Below, in pieces: positions 57,759 through 64,000 of a DNA stretch of 64,000 nt. The notes under the pieces were generated by a model. It did no database searches and was not told the DNA's origin. It saw nothing but the letters and a program-made list of their open reading frames with translations. Within the stretch, counting starts at the first letter, position 1. Every line of letters starts with the position of its first letter. Source of the stretch: an uncultured Gaiellaceae bacterium. Lineage in GTDB: Bacteria > Actinomycetota > Thermoleophilia > Gaiellales > Gaiellaceae. The stretch covers positions 13,920-77,919 of the forward strand of contig CAVUYY010000012.1 of NCBI GenBank assembly GCA_963745775.1, written 5' to 3'. The position numbers and the translations under genes were made by a program.

Positions 57759-58877
57759 ATGGCGACGGCGGAACGAGACCTCTACGAGCTGCTCGGCGTC
57801 GAGCGTGGCGCGAGCGACGCGGAGATCAAGAAGGCGTTCCGCAAGCTCGCGCAGAAGCTCCATCCGGACGTCTCGCAGGAGCCCGACGCCCAGGCCCGCT
57901 TCCGCGAGGTCGCCGAGGCCTACGAGGTGCTCTCGAACGCGGAGACGCGCCGGCTCTACGACCAGTACGGCCACGCCGGCCTGAAGCGCGGCGGCTACAC
58001 CCCAGGCAACTTCGACTTCGGCAACCTCGGCGACATCTTCTCGGCCTTCTTCGGCGACGACCTGATGGGTCGCGCCGGCCGCGCGGGCGCCGGTCGAGGC
58101 GGCGATGTCGGGATCGCGGTCGAGCTCGAGCTCGAGGAGGTCTTGACGGGCGTGACGCGGCGGGTCGAGCTCGAGGTGGCTCTGACCTGCGACCGCTGTG
58201 ACGGCGACGGTGCCGAGCCGGGCACGACTCCGATCACGTGCGGCACCTGCGCCGGCGCCGGCCGAGTTCAGCAGGTCTCGCGAAGCGTCCTCGGCGAGTT
58301 CGTACGAGCACGAACCTGCCCTACCTGCGACGGCAGCGGGCGCGTCTCGGAGACGCCGTGCCGCGAATGCGCGGGCGCCGGCCGGACGACGCGCGAGAAG
58401 TCGCTCGAGGTGAAGATCCCCGCCGGAATCCACAGCGGGCAGCAGATCCGGATCCGCGGCGAGGGTCACGCCGGAACGCACGGCGGCCCGGCCGGCGACC
58501 TTTACGTCGAGGCGCGAGTCGCGCGCCACGAGCGGTTCGAGCGGGACGGCGACGACATCCTCGCGAGCATCGACCTGACGGTCGTCCAGGCCGCCCTCGG
58601 CGCGCGGGTGTCGGTGCCGACGCTGGAGGGTGAGGTCGAGCTCGAGTTCGAGCCGGGAACGCAGCCCGGCGAGGTTCGCGTGCTCAAGGGCAAGGGCATG
58701 CCGGCGCTCCAGCGCTACGGACGGGGCGACGTGCGGCTACTGGTCAACGTCGCGGTGCCGCGCCGGCTCACCGCCGAGCAGCGCGCGCTCCTCGAGCAGT
58801 TCGAGCAGCATTCCACCGACGAGACCTACAAGCGCGACGAGGGGTTCTTCGAGAAGCTCAGAAGCGCGCTCCGTTGA
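57759..58877 (+). CDS. dnaJ: Molecular chaperone DnaJ
   Basis: J domain DLYELLGVERGASDAEIKKAFRKLAQKLHPD, a G/F region, and four CxxCxGxG zinc-finger motifs. Confidence 0.92.
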   Translation: MATAERDLYELLGVERGASDAEIKKAFRKLAQKLHPDVSQEPDAQARFREVAEAYEVLSNAETRRLYDQYGHAGLKRGGYTPGNFDFGNLGDIFSAFFGDDLMGRAGRAGAGRGGDVGIAVELELEEVLTGVTRRVELEVALTCDRCDGDGAEPGTTPITCGTCAGAGRVQQVSRSVLGEFVRARTCPTCDGSGRVSETPCRECAGAGRTTREKSLEVKIPAGIHSGQQIRIRGEGHAGTHGGPAGDLYVEARVARHERFERDGDDILASIDLTVVQAALGARVSVPTLEGEVELEFEPGTQPGEVRVLKGKGMPALQRYGRGDVRLLVNVAVPRRLTAEQRALLEQFEQHSTDETYKRDEGFFEKLRSALR

Positions 58878-59635
58878 AGCTGCTCCGGCGGGTTTCCGTC
58901 ACGGTGCCGCCGGCGCGGGCCGAGCAGGCTCGCGCGGTCATGCTCGAGCTGTTTCCGACGGGCTTCGAGGAGGTCGACCACGACGGCAGCCTGGAGCTCG
59001 CCGCGTACACGAACTCCGCCGGCGAGGAGCGGATCTGGCAGGCCTTCGGCGGGGCGGCGGGTTCCGACGTCGACACCGGCTGGGAGGAGCGCTGGCGTCA
59101 ATTTCACAAGCCGTCGCGCGTGGGGGAGCTGTGGATCGGGCCGCCCTGGGAGCGTCCCGACGCGGACGCGCTGCCGGTCGTCATCGACCCGGGTCGCGCC
59201 TTCGGTACCGGCGGGCACGCGACGACGCGGCTCTGCCTCGAGCTCCTCGCCGACGAGCCACGAGGAAGCGTGCTCGACGTTGGTTGCGGCTCCGGGATCC
59301 TCTCGATCGCCGCTGTCAGGCTCGGCTTCGCGCCGGTTTCGGGGATCGATTTCGACCCGCAGGCTGTCGAGGCGACCGAGCGCAACGCGCGCGACAACGG
59401 CGTCGACGTCGTCGCCCGGCTCGCGGATCTGCGCGACGAGGTGTTGCCCGAGGTCGATCTGGCCCTCGCGAACATCGCCGCCGAGGCCGTGCTCGCGCTC
59501 GGGCCGAAGCTCCGTGCGGCCCGAGCGATCACCTCCGGCTACCTCGTCTCGGACGAACCCGACCTCGAGGGTTACCGCCGCGAGCGGCGGATCGGCGTCG
59601 ACGGCTGGGCCGCCGACCTGCACGTGCGTCGGTAA
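58874..59635 (+). CDS. prmA: Ribosomal protein L11 methyltransferase
   Basis: IDPGRAFGTGGHATTRLCLE and VLDVGCGSGILSIAA (SAM motif). The TTG start overlaps the dnaJ stop (TTGA). Confidence 0.88.
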   Translation: MKLLRRVSVTVPPARAEQARAVMLELFPTGFEEVDHDGSLELAAYTNSAGEERIWQAFGGAAGSDVDTGWEERWRQFHKPSRVGELWIGPPWERPDADALPVVIDPGRAFGTGGHATTRLCLELLADEPRGSVLDVGCGSGILSIAAVRLGFAPVSGIDFDPQAVEATERNARDNGVDVVARLADLRDEVLPEVDLALANIAAEAVLALGPKLRAARAITSGYLVSDEPDLEGYRRERRIGVDGWAADLHVRR

Positions 59636-59648
59636 GAATCGCGCTCTG

Positions 59649-59978
59649 ATGACCGCCGATTGCCTCTTCTGCAAGCTCTTCCGCGAGGGCGACCACGTCG
59701 CGACGACCGACGGCTTCGTCGCGATCCGCGACATCAATCCGCAGGCCGACGTCCATCTGCTCGTGCTCCCCGAGCGGCACGTCGACACGTTTCGCGACGT
59801 CGGCGAGTTCACCCCGGACGAGTCGAAGCGAATGCTCGAGTTCGTCGCGGAGGTCGCCCGCGACGCGGGTCTCGAGGACTACCGCGTGCTCGTCAACGTC
59901 GGCCCGGGCGGCGGCCAGACGATCTTCCACCTGCACTGGCACGTCTTGGGTGGGAAGATCAGCGGGATGCCCGAATGA
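59649..59978 (+). CDS. HIT-family (histidine triad) nucleotide hydrolase
   Basis: CLFCKL N-terminus and the HLHWHVLGG histidine triad; 109 aa. Confidence 0.85.
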   Translation: MTADCLFCKLFREGDHVATTDGFVAIRDINPQADVHLLVLPERHVDTFRDVGEFTPDESKRMLEFVAEVARDAGLEDYRVLVNVGPGGGQTIFHLHWHVLGGKISGMPE

Positions 59979-60418
59979 GCCTCATCGCCGAGATCGAAGC
60001 GCAGCTCAAGGATGCGATGCGCGAGCGCGACGACGCGCGCCGCGACGCGCTGCGGCTGATCCTCTCGAGCCTGCGCGGCGCGGAGAAGGAGCTGCAGCGA
60101 GGGCTCTCGGAGGACGAGGAGCTCCAGGTGCTGCAGCGCGAGCGCAAGAAGCGGGTCGAGGCCGCCGAGGCGTTCCGGAGCGGCGACCGCGCGGAGCAGG
60201 CCGAAAAGGAGGAGGCGGAGCTCGAGGTGCTCGAGGAGTTCATGCCCGAGCCGCTCTCCGAGGAGGAGATCGAGGAGATCGTGGACGACGTGATCGCCGA
60301 GGTCGGCGCCACGAGCATGCGCGACATCGGCCGTGTGATGGCCGACGTGATGCCGCAGATCGCGGGCAGAGCGGACGGCTCGGCCGTGAGCCAGCTCGTC
60401 CGCGAAAAGCTCGCCTAG
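59975..60418 (+). CDS. GatB/YqeY-domain protein
   Basis: 147 aa. IEAQLKDAMRERDDARRDALRLILSSL ... MRDIGRVMADVMPQIAGRADGSAVSQLVREKL. The ATG overlaps the HIT stop (ATGA). Confidence 0.85.
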   Translation: MSLIAEIEAQLKDAMRERDDARRDALRLILSSLRGAEKELQRGLSEDEELQVLQRERKKRVEAAEAFRSGDRAEQAEKEEAELEVLEEFMPEPLSEEEIEEIVDDVIAEVGATSMRDIGRVMADVMPQIAGRADGSAVSQLVREKLA

Positions 60419-60420
60419 CT

Positions 60421-63400
60421 CTAGTCCGGCGCGTCGACGAAGAGGTCGAAGTCTCCGGCCAGAACGCGGTCGATCCGGCCGGTGCGCATCCCCGTCGTGT
60501 TGCGGACGAGCGGCGAGGGCTCGTGGCGGTAACGCCGGACGATTCCCGGCTCGGGCCGATCCGGTGGCGGCGCGTTCTTGCCGTCGCCCGCCGGCGCCAC
60601 GTCGACGAGCACGGTGACGCGGTCGAACGAACGGTTCTCCTCGTGCGGGAGCTCGAGCACGTGCAGGCCGATCTCTTGCTTCAGCAGCGTGTAGGCGCCA
60701 AGCCCGGAGACGTCGAGGACGACGACGCCGTCGCCGCCGTTTCTGCGAATCCGCATCCCACGGCCGTCGGCCCAGCCGACGTACATCGTCGCGAGCTCTT
60801 GCACGAACCGATCGCAGGCGGCCGCATCCTCGGACTTGCCCGCCCGGACCGTGAGCGTCGCGTCGCTCGCCTCGCGCGCATCGAGACCTGCGAGCGCGGC
60901 CGTGAGCACGTGCAGGCGCGTCGCGAGCAGGCGGAGCAGCTCGGTCGAATGGGCCTCGCGCGCGGAGGAGAGGCGCGCACCAAGCCGTTCTGCCGTCGCC
61001 GTCGCGGCCCCCAGGCGATCGAGGTACTCGATCAGGCTCAGCACGTTCTGTCGATCCTCGGACTGCCAGAAGGCCGGCTCGCGCGCCTCCGCCAGCGCGT
61101 CCTCCTTGGCGTCGTCCCATGAGCGTACGCGCTCGCCGAGCGAGGCGAGCGCGCTCAGGAGGAAGGTCCCCTCGGCCTCCGTTCCGTCCGGCTCGAGCGC
61201 GACCCGTGCGACCGTGAGACCGCCCGGGTCGACCGGCTCCTCCGCCGCCGTGGCCGACTCCGGCTCGCCCGCATTCGGGTCGACGAAGGCGACGTCCAGT
61301 CCGGTCCCGTCGCGCGCGGTGATGAAGAGGAACTGATCGCCTTCCGGGAACTGCCGCTCGACGATCGCGGTCGCGATCCGTGTCAGCAGGTACCGCTCGA
61401 CGGCACGCTTGAGCGGGCGTGCGCCGAGCTCGGCGCTGAAGCCCTGCTCGATCAGGAAGTCGATCGCGGCCTCGTCCCACTCGACCGCCCACGGGTGCAT
61501 CCGGAAGCCGCGGCGTTCGAGCACGTCGTTGAGCTCCTTCTCGAGCAGTCCGCGCATGATCTCGCGGCCGAGTGGGCGGAAGACGACGACGCGGTCGAGG
61601 CGGTTCAGGAACTCCGGCCGGAACGACTGCTCGACCGACTTCGTCACCGTCGCGGGGTCGAACTCCCCCGAGCGTCCGGTGAACCCGACGCCGGGACCGC
61701 GTGGGATTGCGGAGCCCAGGTTGGAGGTCAGGATGATCACGCAGTGGCGCAGGTCGACCGTGCGCCCGTTGCGGTCGGTCAGGCGCCCGTCGTCGAACAC
61801 CTGCAGGAAGACGTCCCACACGTTCTGGTGTGCCTTCTCGAACTCGTCGAGCAGGAGCACCGTGAACGGCTGCTTGCGCACCGAGGAGATCAGCGGAGCG
61901 GCAGACTCACCCTCGGCGGAGTCGCCGAGCAGGCGCTCCAGGCTCTCAGGGGTCTGGAACTCGCTCATGTCCAGCCGGACGAGCCGGTCCGGAGAGCCGA
62001 AGAGGAACTCGCTGAAGGCCTTTGCGATCTCGGTCTTGCCCGTGCCGGTAGGCCCGACGAAGAGGAAGACCCCGAGCGGCCGGGTCGGGTCGGTCAGCCC
62101 GGCCTTCACCAGCGCGACTCGGTCGACGAGGCACTCGACCGCCTCCGGCTGGCCGAGCACGCGGCTCTCGAAGAACGCTCGCACGTCGTCCAGGCTGAGG
62201 GGCGAGCGTGGATCGAGCACGTGCAGCGGCAGGCCCGTCGCGGCGCTCAGCGTCGCGATCACGCTCTCGGTCGTCACCTCCGTCGCGAGCCCGCGCGTGA
62301 CGCGGTCGAGAACGAGCTCGAGCAGGCGAAGGAGGTTCCCCGGCGCGGCCGTCCCGGGGAGGTAGTGGTTCGCCAGGTCGAGCGACTCGGCCAGCGTGTG
62401 CTCGTCGACGTCGACGCCGTAGTCGCGCGACCAGCCGCGCGCGACCTCGAGTGCGTCCTCGTCCGTCATCGGCGCCAGGCGGATCACCTCGAAGATCCGC
62501 GTCACGCGCGGCCGGCTCTGGGCCAGCAGCTCGTAGGCAGTGGGATCGATCTCGCCGATGACGGCGATGTCGTGGGCCTCGATCGCCGGGAGCATCGCGT
62601 CGAGGAGCCCGTGCGGGCTGCGTGAGTGCTGACCTGCGTAGAGCGCCTCCTCGAAGCTCGGGAAGAGCCAGACGATCGAGCGCCGGCTCATCCGCCCGAC
62701 GATCTCCTGGACGCGTCCCTCGAGCTCGCCGATGTAGATCTGACCGGCATTCACCTCGGACGCGCTCGCCTGGAACGCGATCCACGGCTGCTCCAGGCGG
62801 CGTAGCGCCTCGACGACCAGGGTCGTCTTGCCGACGCCCTGCTCGCCGACGAGGAGCACGGAGCGTGGGCTGCGCGGCGAGAGCGCCGCTGCGACCGCGT
62901 CGACCGCCGCGACGCGCGAGCCTACGAGCGTGGCCTGGGGGTGGTCGTCGACCTTGACGAGCCGCCCGAGATCGCGGAAGAAGCCGGTGTCGATCGACTG
63001 CTCCCGCCACTGATCGAGGGCGGGCGAGAGGAGGGTCCGCGTCGCCGGGGTGGCAGCCTCGAGCAGCTCGCCTACGAGCGGCTGCAGGCCGACGTCGAGC
63101 GTCGCGAGGTCGGCGGCCTTCAGGCGCTCGCCCTGCGCGACGCGCGCGTCGAGGAACGGCGAGACTGCCTTGGCGAGCGGGCTGCCGCTCCAGTCCTCCT
63201 CGGCCGCCTCGAGCACGGCCAGGATGCGACTTGTTCGGCACGACCGCGAACGCGCGTAGCAGCAGCACGCGCTCGCCCCAGTCCGCGCGCGCGAACCGCT
63301 TCTTCGCCCGGTCGGCCCAATCAGCAGGCGGCGTGCGCCCGGCTGCGATCGCCCCGAGCGTGCCCGCGCGGAGGAACTTCGAGGCGTCCCGGGCCGCGAC

Positions 63401-63568
63401 GGAGAACGCATCGTGGTTGACGCGGCCGGGGTTGCACAGCAGCACGACGAGGCGTCCGAACAGCTCGTCGTCTTCGAGCTCGTCGGCGTCGAGCCAGTCG
63501 TGGTTCTCGGCCAACTGCTTCGCCAGGGCCTTGGCCTCGGCCAGGCCGTCCGCTTCGTGCCGTGCCAT
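60421..63568 (-). pseudogene. ClpB-like double-AAA+ ATPase with C-terminal GGQ-less release-factor-like domain (one frame change near the N-terminus)
   Basis: The N-terminal 114 codons come from ORF 61946..63568 (MARHEADGLAEAK...AFAVVPNKS). After a switch near 63224-63229 the gene continues in ORF 60421..63411 (RILAVLEAAEEDW...). Motifs: GEQGVGKTT; GPTGTGKTE / LLLDEFEKAH / RPEFLNRLD. The C-terminal RF-like blocks are described in the findings. Confidence 0.75.
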
Positions 63569-63648
63569 CCCTCGTCTTGTACTCGAAACGCGTGGCCGTC
63601 GCGAGCGTGCGAGCCGTCGACCGCGCCGACCTGCCTACACTGAGCCGG

Positions 63649-64000
63649 GTGCAGGAAGTTCTATCCGTCCCGAACGAGGTCGCAGCGGAGCTCGCCGGCG
63701 TCGGTGACGGCGTGCTCGATGCTCTGCGCGGGCGGCTTCATTGCACTCTGCGCCTACGCGGGAACCAGCTCACGATCGAGGGCGGCGACGAGCAGGTCGC
63801 GGCGGCGCGCGCCGTCGTGGACGAGCTCGTCGAGCTGGTCGAGGGCGGCCATGAGATCGGGCCGGACACGGTCGGCGCGGTCGTAGCGGCTCTCGACCAG
63901 ACCGAGGACATCCGGCAGGTCTTCGACGACGTCGTCTGGCGCCACCGGGGCAAGAAGATCGCGCCGAAGACGGTCACGCAGAAGCGCTACGTCGACTCGA
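63649..64000 (+). CDS. phoH: PhoH-family ATPase, 5' part (runs off the window)
   Basis: The open frame from GTG 63649 reads VQEVLSVPNEVAAELAGVGDGVLDALR...LRGNQLTIEGGDEQVAAARAVVDELV...GKKIAPKTVTQKRYVD, which is the typical PhoH N-terminal region. The frame is not in the ORF track because no stop is reached. Confidence 0.8.
   Translation, partial: MQEVLSVPNEVAAELAGVGDGVLDALRGRLHCTLRLRGNQLTIEGGDEQVAAARAVVDELVELVEGGHEIGPDTVGAVVAALDQTEDIRQVFDDVVWRHRGKKIAPKTVTQKRYVDS

Follow-up and report, generated by a model that had tools for sequence, protein, structure and literature searches.

A 64,000-nucleotide stretch of DNA from an uncultured Gaiellaceae bacterium (contig CAVUYY010000012.1; 'the window' hereafter) encodes on its minus strand a protein in which a Clp-type ATPase is fused to a module related to class-I release factors (RFs). 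This protein belongs to an uncharacterised and widespread family of such fusions. Its C-terminal module is a class-I RF paralogue that has kept domains 1 and 2 and, by its predicted model, domain 4, and has lost domain 3, the GGQ-bearing peptidyl-tRNA hydrolase, and the fusion of this module with the ATPase is obligate. We found no paper on the architecture in the searchable literature, and database names for its members are limited to 'AAA family ATPase' or 'ClpC', which conceal the RF-like module. A first-pass annotation made from the letters alone had described a four-part protein and knew of no characterised protein built in the same way; both points are borne out, Pfam recognising AAA, AAA_2, ClpB_D2-small and PCRF in the protein once its reading frame is repaired, and no Pfam family matching the N-terminal 225 aa. 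The gene and the parts of its C-terminal region lie in the window as follows.

60421..63568, minus strand: whole gene, 1048 aa after removal of one extra base; stop codon at 60421-60423
61180..61287, minus strand: acidic, proline-rich and flexible linker from D2-small to the RF-like module (aa 761-796)
60880..61179, minus strand: helical bundle like RF domain 1 (aa 797-896), including EPAFWQSEDR; placed on RF2 residues 28-130 by profile alignment and supported by the AlphaFold2 helices and by Foldseek
60592..60861, minus strand: alpha/beta part like RF domain 2 (aa 903-992), with E965, G967, H969, E972 and R983 invariant or nearly so and P974 aligned to the Pro of PxT
60544..60591, minus strand: short linker in place of RF domain 3 (aa 993-1008); 37 aa from GLHVLE to VRRYR
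60424..60543, minus strand: strands and helix like RF domain 4 (aa 1009-1048), beta-beta-beta-alpha in the AlphaFold2 model; assigned from this model, Foldseek, hhalign and conservation

The Pfam family PCRF (PF03462) scores 28.7 bits in the full protein and 32.3 bits in the isolated module, for a cut-off of 24, and it passes its gathering cut-off in 27 of the 27 diverse members tested. A profile of the last 270 aa, compared with 177,635 sequences of the Protein Data Bank (PDB), retrieved RF2, RF1 and mitochondrial RF1 (mtRF1) only, the best match (E=1.7e-10) placing profile positions 37-193 on RF2 residues 28-201. With E. coli RF1, hhalign returned a probability of 94.9% (E=4.5e-8, family positions 98-220 on RF1 87-214). 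The AlphaFold2 model of the module, with a predicted local distance difference test score (pLDDT) of 91.7 and a predicted template modelling score of 0.88, has four long helices, a beta-alpha-beta-beta-alpha-beta-beta part, a 16-residue linker and a final beta-beta-beta-alpha, which is the order of these elements in RFs. When this model was searched against the PDB with Foldseek, the top 50 matches were all RF1, RF2 or mtRF1 (best E=9e-11), and the alignments ran over about 350 columns of the 360-residue RFs, covering both RF ends and leaving about 90 columns gapped at domain 3. The likeness to RFs that the first-pass annotation had noted thus lies far above chance.

Domain 3 has been replaced by a short linker, again as that annotation had it. 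There is no GGQ in the repaired protein sequence, and the Pfam family RF-1 (PF00472), which spans domains 3 and 4, gave no match at E<=10 in any of the 27 members. The span from G-x-H-[VIL]-[LFY]-E to [VILT]-[RK]-R-Y-[RK] has 37 aa in the window protein and ranges over the family from 31 to 63 aa (median 46), versus 121 aa for the equivalent span of E. coli RF1, from GGHRVQ to NRTYNF, with the GGQ at 233-235. In members outside Gaiellaceae, the replacing linker is 10-25 aa longer and includes a weakly conserved Ala/Arg-rich segment (...A..AL...), which could be a short helix remaining from domain 3 or from the alpha7/switch region.

The assignment of domain 4 rests mainly on the predicted model. 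By hhalign, family positions 19-43 (the last 25 residues) fall weakly on RF1 317-341 (P=0.009), and since a hidden Markov model (HMM) of the last 42 aa matched nothing among the PDB sequences at E<=10, sequence alone is no proof of this domain. By inspection, the RF hallmark R-x-Y...P...V-x-D is kept as R-R-Y-R-x-x-P-S-P-L-V-R-D. The place on RF1 to which the extreme C-terminus had been aligned in the first-pass annotation was recovered, if weakly by sequence.

With RF1 and RF2 the module shares the helical bundle of domain 1 and, as far as the predicted model shows, the beta-sheet superdomain of domains 2 and 4, RF2 being its best match in both sequence and fold, as well as the motifs FW..s..R, D-A-x-[LVI]-x-[VIL]-R, MY..WA..RGM, E-x-G-x-H and, in domain 4, R..Y...P...V.D. 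It differs from them in the absence of the GGQ domain 3, the short linker taking the place of the switch-loop region, and in being fused to a 780-aa ATPase, whereas RFs stand alone. A further difference concerns reading of the stop codon, which in RF1/RF2-ribosome crystal structures is carried out by residues of helix alpha5, PxT and RIHTS. We assessed the conservation of these and other motifs by counting residues per alignment column in 217 full-length members, drawn from several phyla. E965, G967, H969, E972 and R983, the five residues conserved in the domain-2-like part, have their counterparts in E-x-G-x-H and G-R in RFs. In the hhalign alignment, P974 falls on the Pro of the RF1 PAT tripeptide, and 171 of the 217 sequences have a Pro here; ELP-H-E of the family lies over RVP-A-T of RF1, the tripeptide being conserved at its Pro only. 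The first-pass annotation had seen no PxT or SPF tripeptide. The positions of the helix-alpha5 GGDE (GxxE), of the PxT Thr and of the RIHTS His-Thr are all variable, so that 'decoding scaffold', as the module had been called, is an overstatement. The most conserved stretch of the module is an arginine-rich motif of domain 4, V-R-R-Y-R-x-x-P-S-P-L-V-R-D-x-x-x-x-R-T-G-R-x-D-R-V-L-x-G-x-F-D. Because this motif and the E/G/H/E/R set are kept while the codon-reading positions vary, the module is strongly constrained, and for something other than canonical stop-codon reading or peptide release.

The module was sought in one genome per GTDB species and was present in at least 202 of these genomes, which belong to seven or more phyla; lineages were listed for the best 80 of 202 loci. 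The best 80 loci belong to Gaiellaceae, other Actinomycetota/Thermoleophilia, Calditrichia, Thermodesulfobacteriota/Desulfobacterales, Acidobacteriota, Planctomycetota and Gemmatimonadota, and include a single isolate, Rudaea sp. 3F27F6. Intact ORFs (open reading frames) across the loci have 1050-1280 aa, and the window protein shares the combination AAA, AAA_2, ClpB_D2-small and PCRF with 8 members from 6 further phyla. In a HMMER pass over 1.8 billion cluster representatives, the module was always C-terminal to this ATPase (396 representatives at 50% identity, E<=1e-30), and no stand-alone module was present among the matches. Candidates for stand-alone GGQ-less RF-like proteins were rejected as fragments, since these short matches begin inside D2 or the linker; one that we checked has its frame open up to the edge of the contig and begins at the linker motif FVDPD. 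Carriage by mobile elements was likewise rejected, as tblastn found no copy in plasmid or phage collections. We also observed that two contigs (L079 and L080) of one metagenome-assembled genome (MAG), MFD10007.bin.3.89, each carry a full-length member of about 1065-1128 aa; since these contigs are different, some genomes hold two paralogues.

The ATPase to which the module is attached has two AAA+ modules, D1 and D2, with the following elements.

62158..62892, minus strand: AAA+ module D1 (aa 226-470), matched by Pfam AAA/AAA_16 more weakly than D2 is matched, and aligned to D1 of ClpB, ClpC and ClpA
62821..62847, minus strand: D1 Walker A GEQGVGKTT, with GxxGxGK[TS] kept (Lys in 209 of 217)
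62713..62751, minus strand: D1 pore loop NAGQIYIGELEGR, corresponding to ClpB AGAKYRGEFEER, aromatic residue kept (Y in 153 and F in 50 of 217)
62641..62676, minus strand: degenerate D1 Walker B IVWLFPSFEEAL, its P-S aligned by HMMER to the D-E of ClpB (Pro in 199 of 217)
61288..62157, minus strand: AAA+ module D2 and D2-small (aa 471-760), of Clp/Hsp100 type; Pfam AAA_2 E=3.6e-42, ClpB_D2-small E=9.5e-14
62029..62055, minus strand: D2 Walker A GPTGTGKTE, intact by family column counts
61882..61935, minus strand: D2 pore-loop region RLLGDSAEGESAAPLISS, GYVGY of ClpB/ClpC deleted
61828..61857, minus strand: D2 Walker B LLLDEFEKAH (D in 215 and E in 216 of 217)
61681..61689, minus strand: V-G-F tripeptide, after TSNLG (G in 214 and F in 216 of 217)

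Residue-level HMMER alignments were made with ClpB, ClpC and a ClpB/ClpA chimera. The AAA+ motifs quoted in the first-pass annotation are all found (GEQGVGKTT, IVWLFPSFEEAL, GPTGTGKTE, LLLDEFEKAH, TSNLG, RPEFLNRLD and ARPLKRAVE). Its recognition of the second module as a D2 of Clp type agrees with the Pfam matches to AAA_2 and ClpB_D2-small, with the Walker motifs, and with PDB matches to ClpB/ClpC at E about 1e-70. Walker A and Walker B of D2 are kept family-wide, and D2 can be taken as catalytically intact. D1, in turn, was said to lack a canonical hhhhDE Walker B, which is correct and true of the whole family, where Asp-Glu has become Pro-x; D1 probably binds nucleotide without hydrolysing it. 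The pore loops show the reverse distribution. That of D1 has in the family the ClpB-like form A-G-Q-x-[YF]-[IV]-G-E, and the stretch that replaces GYVGY in D2 carries an aromatic residue in none of the members. In ClpA, ClpC and ClpB, it is the D2 pore-loop tyrosine that drives translocation. The family would therefore have unusual Clp mechanics, with a hydrolysing ring (D2) lacking the pore tyrosine and a ring with the pore aromatic (D1) lacking Walker B. As for the term 'unfoldase' used in the first-pass annotation, an ATPase with an intact D2 is there, but unfolding is not assured, the GYVG tyrosine of D2 being deleted and the aromatic being kept only by a D1 that does not appear to hydrolyse ATP.

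The same annotation called the protein ClpB-like, a label that does not hold for its defining features and for which 'ClpA/ClpC-like' is the better choice. The coiled-coil M-domain of ClpB is absent: the HMMER alignment passes from query position 422 straight to ClpB 512, and about 50 aa only separate the D1 sensor-2 region from the start of D2. The NCBIfam ClpB model TIGR03346 gives 287.6 bits, for D2 only, versus a cut-off of 1232.1, and the ClpA model TIGR02639 gives 261.3 bits versus 993; because these scores are far under the two equivalog cut-offs, we consider the protein a Clp/Hsp100 relative outside the ClpB and ClpA families. The nearly invariant [LVI]-G-F loop falls exactly on VGF in B. 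subtilis ClpC and on the ClpA IGL grafted into the chimera. An (L/I/V)-G-(F/L) tripeptide is the element that docks Clp ATPases into the hydrophobic pockets of ClpP (PMC8745299). With ClpC and ClpA the family has in common two AAA+ modules, no insertion of the size of a ClpB-type M-domain, a D2-small and [LIV]-G-F at the ClpP-docking position; it departs from them by a D1 without Walker B, a D2 with GYVG deleted and an added C-terminal extension of 290 aa. ClpB/Hsp104 shows the highest sequence similarity in D2 (257 bits for T. thermophilus ClpB, 288 bits for NCBIfam ClpB), but the family lacks the M-domain, its D1 is predicted inactive, its D2 is without pore tyrosine, and it has a ClpP-type loop that is absent from ClpB. 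By sequence comparison, the ATPase is an atypical motor, nearest to ClpC/ClpA in organisation and to ClpB in the sequence of D2.

The window copy of the gene is split by one base:

63226..63227, minus strand: one inserted base breaking the reading frame (AAGTC[G]CATCC, compared with AAGTC-CATGC in intact relatives)

There are two overlapping minus-strand ORFs, 60421..63411 and 61946..63568. From the ATG at 63568, 114 codons lie in one frame (63568..63227), and the gene then continues in the -1 frame (63225..60421), both parts reading as plausible protein. When aligned at the DNA level with its two nearest relatives, the window proves to carry one extra base, and when it is omitted the ORFs join into 1048 aa. 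The first-pass annotation had joined them across one frame change to about 1049 aa, and the nearest orthologue, P0001, is uninterrupted at 1048 aa with 98% identity. About 100 more full-length homologues have 1035-1085 aa. The other copies in the 90% cluster of P0001 (P0270-P0278) lie on long-read soil MAG contigs of 100-550 kb, where they are cut off at differing points. Interrupted copies are also found in long-read soil MAGs of the MFD series (L001, L007, L008, L009, L011, L035, L063 and L066), each elsewhere in the gene; since so many copies are broken at differing positions, indel errors are probably frequent in these assemblies. The intact orthologue at 98% identity and the sister copies broken at other positions argue for an assembly indel rather than decay, which is the most likely origin of the frame change in the window. 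Alternatively, the extra base may be a real and recent mutation of the source strain, making this single copy a pseudogene. Differences between P0001 and the window gene (19 synonymous, 25 non-synonymous) are too few to inform on selection.

The frameshift could also be taken as a sign that the whole architecture is an artefact, namely a pseudogene or the chimeric product of misassembling a clp gene with a piece of prfB. We consider this extremely improbable: only one base is involved, the sister copies are broken elsewhere, and intact orthologues of the same length exist in hundreds of independent assemblies and in the isolate genome of Rudaea sp. 3F27F6. At the level of the family, these independent intact orthologues refute it.

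The two genes adjoining the fusion gene are:

59975..60418, plus strand: yqeY, convergent neighbour, ending 2 nt before the gene's stop codon
63592..64000, plus strand: 5' part of phoH, divergent neighbour, with a GTG start 23 nt from the gene's start codon

The gene lies on the opposite strand between lepA - hrcA - dnaJ - prmA - HIT - yqeY and phoH - ybeY - dgk - cdd - era. It is monocistronic, as previously described, being convergent with yqeY and divergent from phoH. The same neighbourhood surrounds P0001 and is found at about 16 Gaiellaceae loci. The genes phoH, ybeY and era serve maturation and quality control of the 30S subunit, and the divergent pairing with phoH-ybeY-...-era in Gaiellaceae lends weak backing to a ribosome-directed function. 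The first-pass annotation had placed the gene in a conserved neighbourhood of translation and ribosome biogenesis; in the loci compared, about 16 of Gaiellaceae and 63 of other lineages, this is accurate for Gaiellaceae and does not extend further, the yqeY/phoH context being specific to this family. We looked for partner genes by all-against-all clustering of ORFs from the 80 loci, by inspection of a recurring upstream ORF and by a Pfam census of 103 immediate neighbours, and none that is conserved emerged. The recurring ORF, of ~223 aa, was rejected as a partner, its instances being unrelated (nitroreductase, PaaC-like, endonuclease III and ABC permease). In the census of the 103 flanking proteins, the commonest family was proline racemase, encountered 5 times.

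Some details of the locus may be added. On the plus strand, prmA (58874-59635), the HIT-family gene (about 59643-59978) and yqeY (59975-60418) have ends that overlap or abut. On the other side, the ATG at 63568 (minus strand) and the phoH GTG at 63592 (plus strand) are just 23 nt apart, as they are in the orthologous locus L081. Because this gap leaves no space for 5' untranslated regions, it suggests either that the transcripts of the gene and of phoH are leaderless or that the starts are mis-called. No sigma70-like promoter or intrinsic terminator was found in 60200-64000, and scans of the 64-kb window for tRNA and tmRNA genes, and for Rfam families at gathering score, were negative.

How might such a protein work? 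The RF-derived module could be a targeting device that docks, as RF domains 2/4 do, at the decoding centre/A site of the 70S ribosome or of the 30S subunit, independently of a stop codon. The near-invariant arginine-rich motif of domain 4 (RRYR...RTGR) would contact ribosomal RNA, and the docked module would bring the hexameric ATPase to the ribosome. D1 would serve as an assembly or nucleotide-sensing ring, and D2, by hydrolysing ATP, would remodel a protein or factor bound to the ribosome or pull it out. Provided that the [LIV]-G-F loops bind ClpP, what has been extracted would be handed over to ClpP and degraded. The result would be a system for quality control, rescue or disassembly of stalled or defective ribosomes. 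We put forward this combination of a ribosome-targeting RF module, remodelling by D2 and coupling to ClpP with reserve, as an account somewhat short of probable, in which we infer both the targeting and the coupling; the first-pass annotation, too, had offered a ribosome-directed function as an inference only. The more specific version is a bacterial ribosome-surveillance machine, whose dead RF paralogue senses an aberrant state of the decoding centre or A site and couples it to extraction and degradation by ClpP or to dismantling of the ribosome; we regard this as possible, if on the doubtful side.

Several of the observations weigh against this proposal. Canonical recognition of the A site cannot be assumed, since the residues that read the stop codon are not conserved. 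The homology of domain 4 is weak by sequence, both with hhalign and with the HMM. Processive threading into ClpP is doubtful, because D2 has no pore tyrosine and D1 seems unable to hydrolyse ATP. The A site is far from the exit of the nascent chain, so that the substrate is not obvious. Finally, the 63 loci outside Gaiellaceae have no recurrent neighbour, and among them no translation-related neighbourhood; their flanking genes are metabolic or regulatory, and never clpP, translation factors or defence genes.

Is the module necessarily directed to the ribosome? It may instead have been exapted for a ligand other than the ribosomal A site, or have become a mere regulatory or oligomerisation domain of the ATPase. 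Such a ligand could be one of the proteins that bind RF1/RF2 (RF3, PrmC, an ArfA/BrfA-like factor), a tRNA or mRNA, or a substrate or adaptor, which the machine would regulate or degrade. The codon-reading residues have been lost while new family-specific motifs are invariant, the translation-related neighbourhood is confined to Gaiellaceae, and the module never occurs alone, which fits a domain working only in cis with the ATPase. We nonetheless consider such an exaptation rather unlikely: the predicted model preserves the entire domain 1/2/4 fold with high confidence and matches RFs only, the conserved arginine clusters suggest binding to nucleic acid, and we know of no function of RF domain 1 or of the 2/4 superdomain away from the ribosome. 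Granting a ribosomal target, the need for ClpP may still be questioned. The protein could act independently of ClpP as a remodeller or segregase, forcing factors or subunits apart without threading them, its [LIV]-G-F tripeptide serving some other contact. Deletion of the D2 GYVG tyrosine, the dead D1 Walker B and the fact that clpP is never adjacent all point that way. However, a G and an F this close to invariance at the position of ClpC VGF and ClpA IGL are hard to explain without a hydrophobic pocket of ClpP type, and a ClpP-independent machine seems unlikely to us.

A patchy distribution over seven or more phyla, together with D2 matches to the profiles of the defence ATPases DolB and PDC-M37B, could also evoke a horizontally spread anti-phage or abortive-infection effector that shuts down translation. 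These PADLOC matches span the generic AAA_2 core only (profile positions 131-280 of 375), and as no neighbour gene recurs, membership of Dodola DolB or PDC-M37B was rejected. The gene is surrounded by housekeeping or metabolic genes, among which neither a recurrent partner nor a defence gene is seen, no plasmid or phage copy exists in the collections searched, and within Gaiellaceae the gene is syntenic in a cluster of core genes. A role in defence is thus very improbable.

Other proteins that derive from RFs are ArfB/ICT1 and PrfH, truncated RF paralogues specialised for non-canonical ribosome states (PMC6514570). They keep the GGQ hydrolase and lose the decoding domains or domain 1, whereas the present family does the reverse and appears to keep domains 1, 2 and 4. 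The family goes unmentioned in a survey of RF evolution from 2019, which traced the hydrolase domain (PMC6514570). The nearest functional analogy is in eukaryotes, where Vms1/ANKZF1 and Cdc48/p97 bring together an RF-type module and an AAA+ unfoldase on stalled ribosomes (PMC6514570). The pairing of an RF-type module with an AAA+ motor is the same in concept, but the RF fold of Vms1/ANKZF1, of the aeRF1 type, is unrelated and catalytically active, and Vms1 and Cdc48 are separate proteins that interact via a VIM motif, in place of a fusion.

The GGQ hydrolase is present in all the RF-derived rescue factors known to us (ArfB/ICT1, PrfH and the ArfA/BrfA-RF2 pairs). This family has dispensed with it and joins the ribosome-docking part of an RF to a Clp motor driven by ATP. 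Should the module indeed dock on ribosomes, this would be a new route of ribosome quality control or turnover, operating in soil lineages that are abundant and for the most part uncultured (Gaiellales/Thermoleophilia, Acidobacteriota, Planctomycetota, Gemmatimonadota and others). At the same time it would provide a natural example of how AAA+ machines gain targeting domains, and a bacterial counterpart, in one polypeptide, of the eukaryotic pairing of an RF-like factor with Cdc48. Experimental testing is feasible, since Rudaea sp. 3F27F6 is a cultured carrier.

The remaining part of the protein is its N-terminal domain.

62893..63568, minus strand: N-terminal domain (aa 1-225), modelled by AlphaFold2 as an all-alpha solenoid of ARM/HEAT/TOG type (pLDDT 91.2)

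This domain occupies the place that Clp_N holds in other Clp ATPases, and its ARM/HEAT-like solenoid is a further difference from ClpC and ClpA. Foldseek searches with the model returned weak matches to repeat proteins (E about 0.1); because this similarity is that of a generic alpha-solenoid, the fold search yields no functional lead. One homologue, P0112 (1109 aa), opens at its N-terminus with a hydrophobic stretch, MAEVLGGIIFFGGTALFVWALFSGL, which may be a membrane anchor in that lineage.

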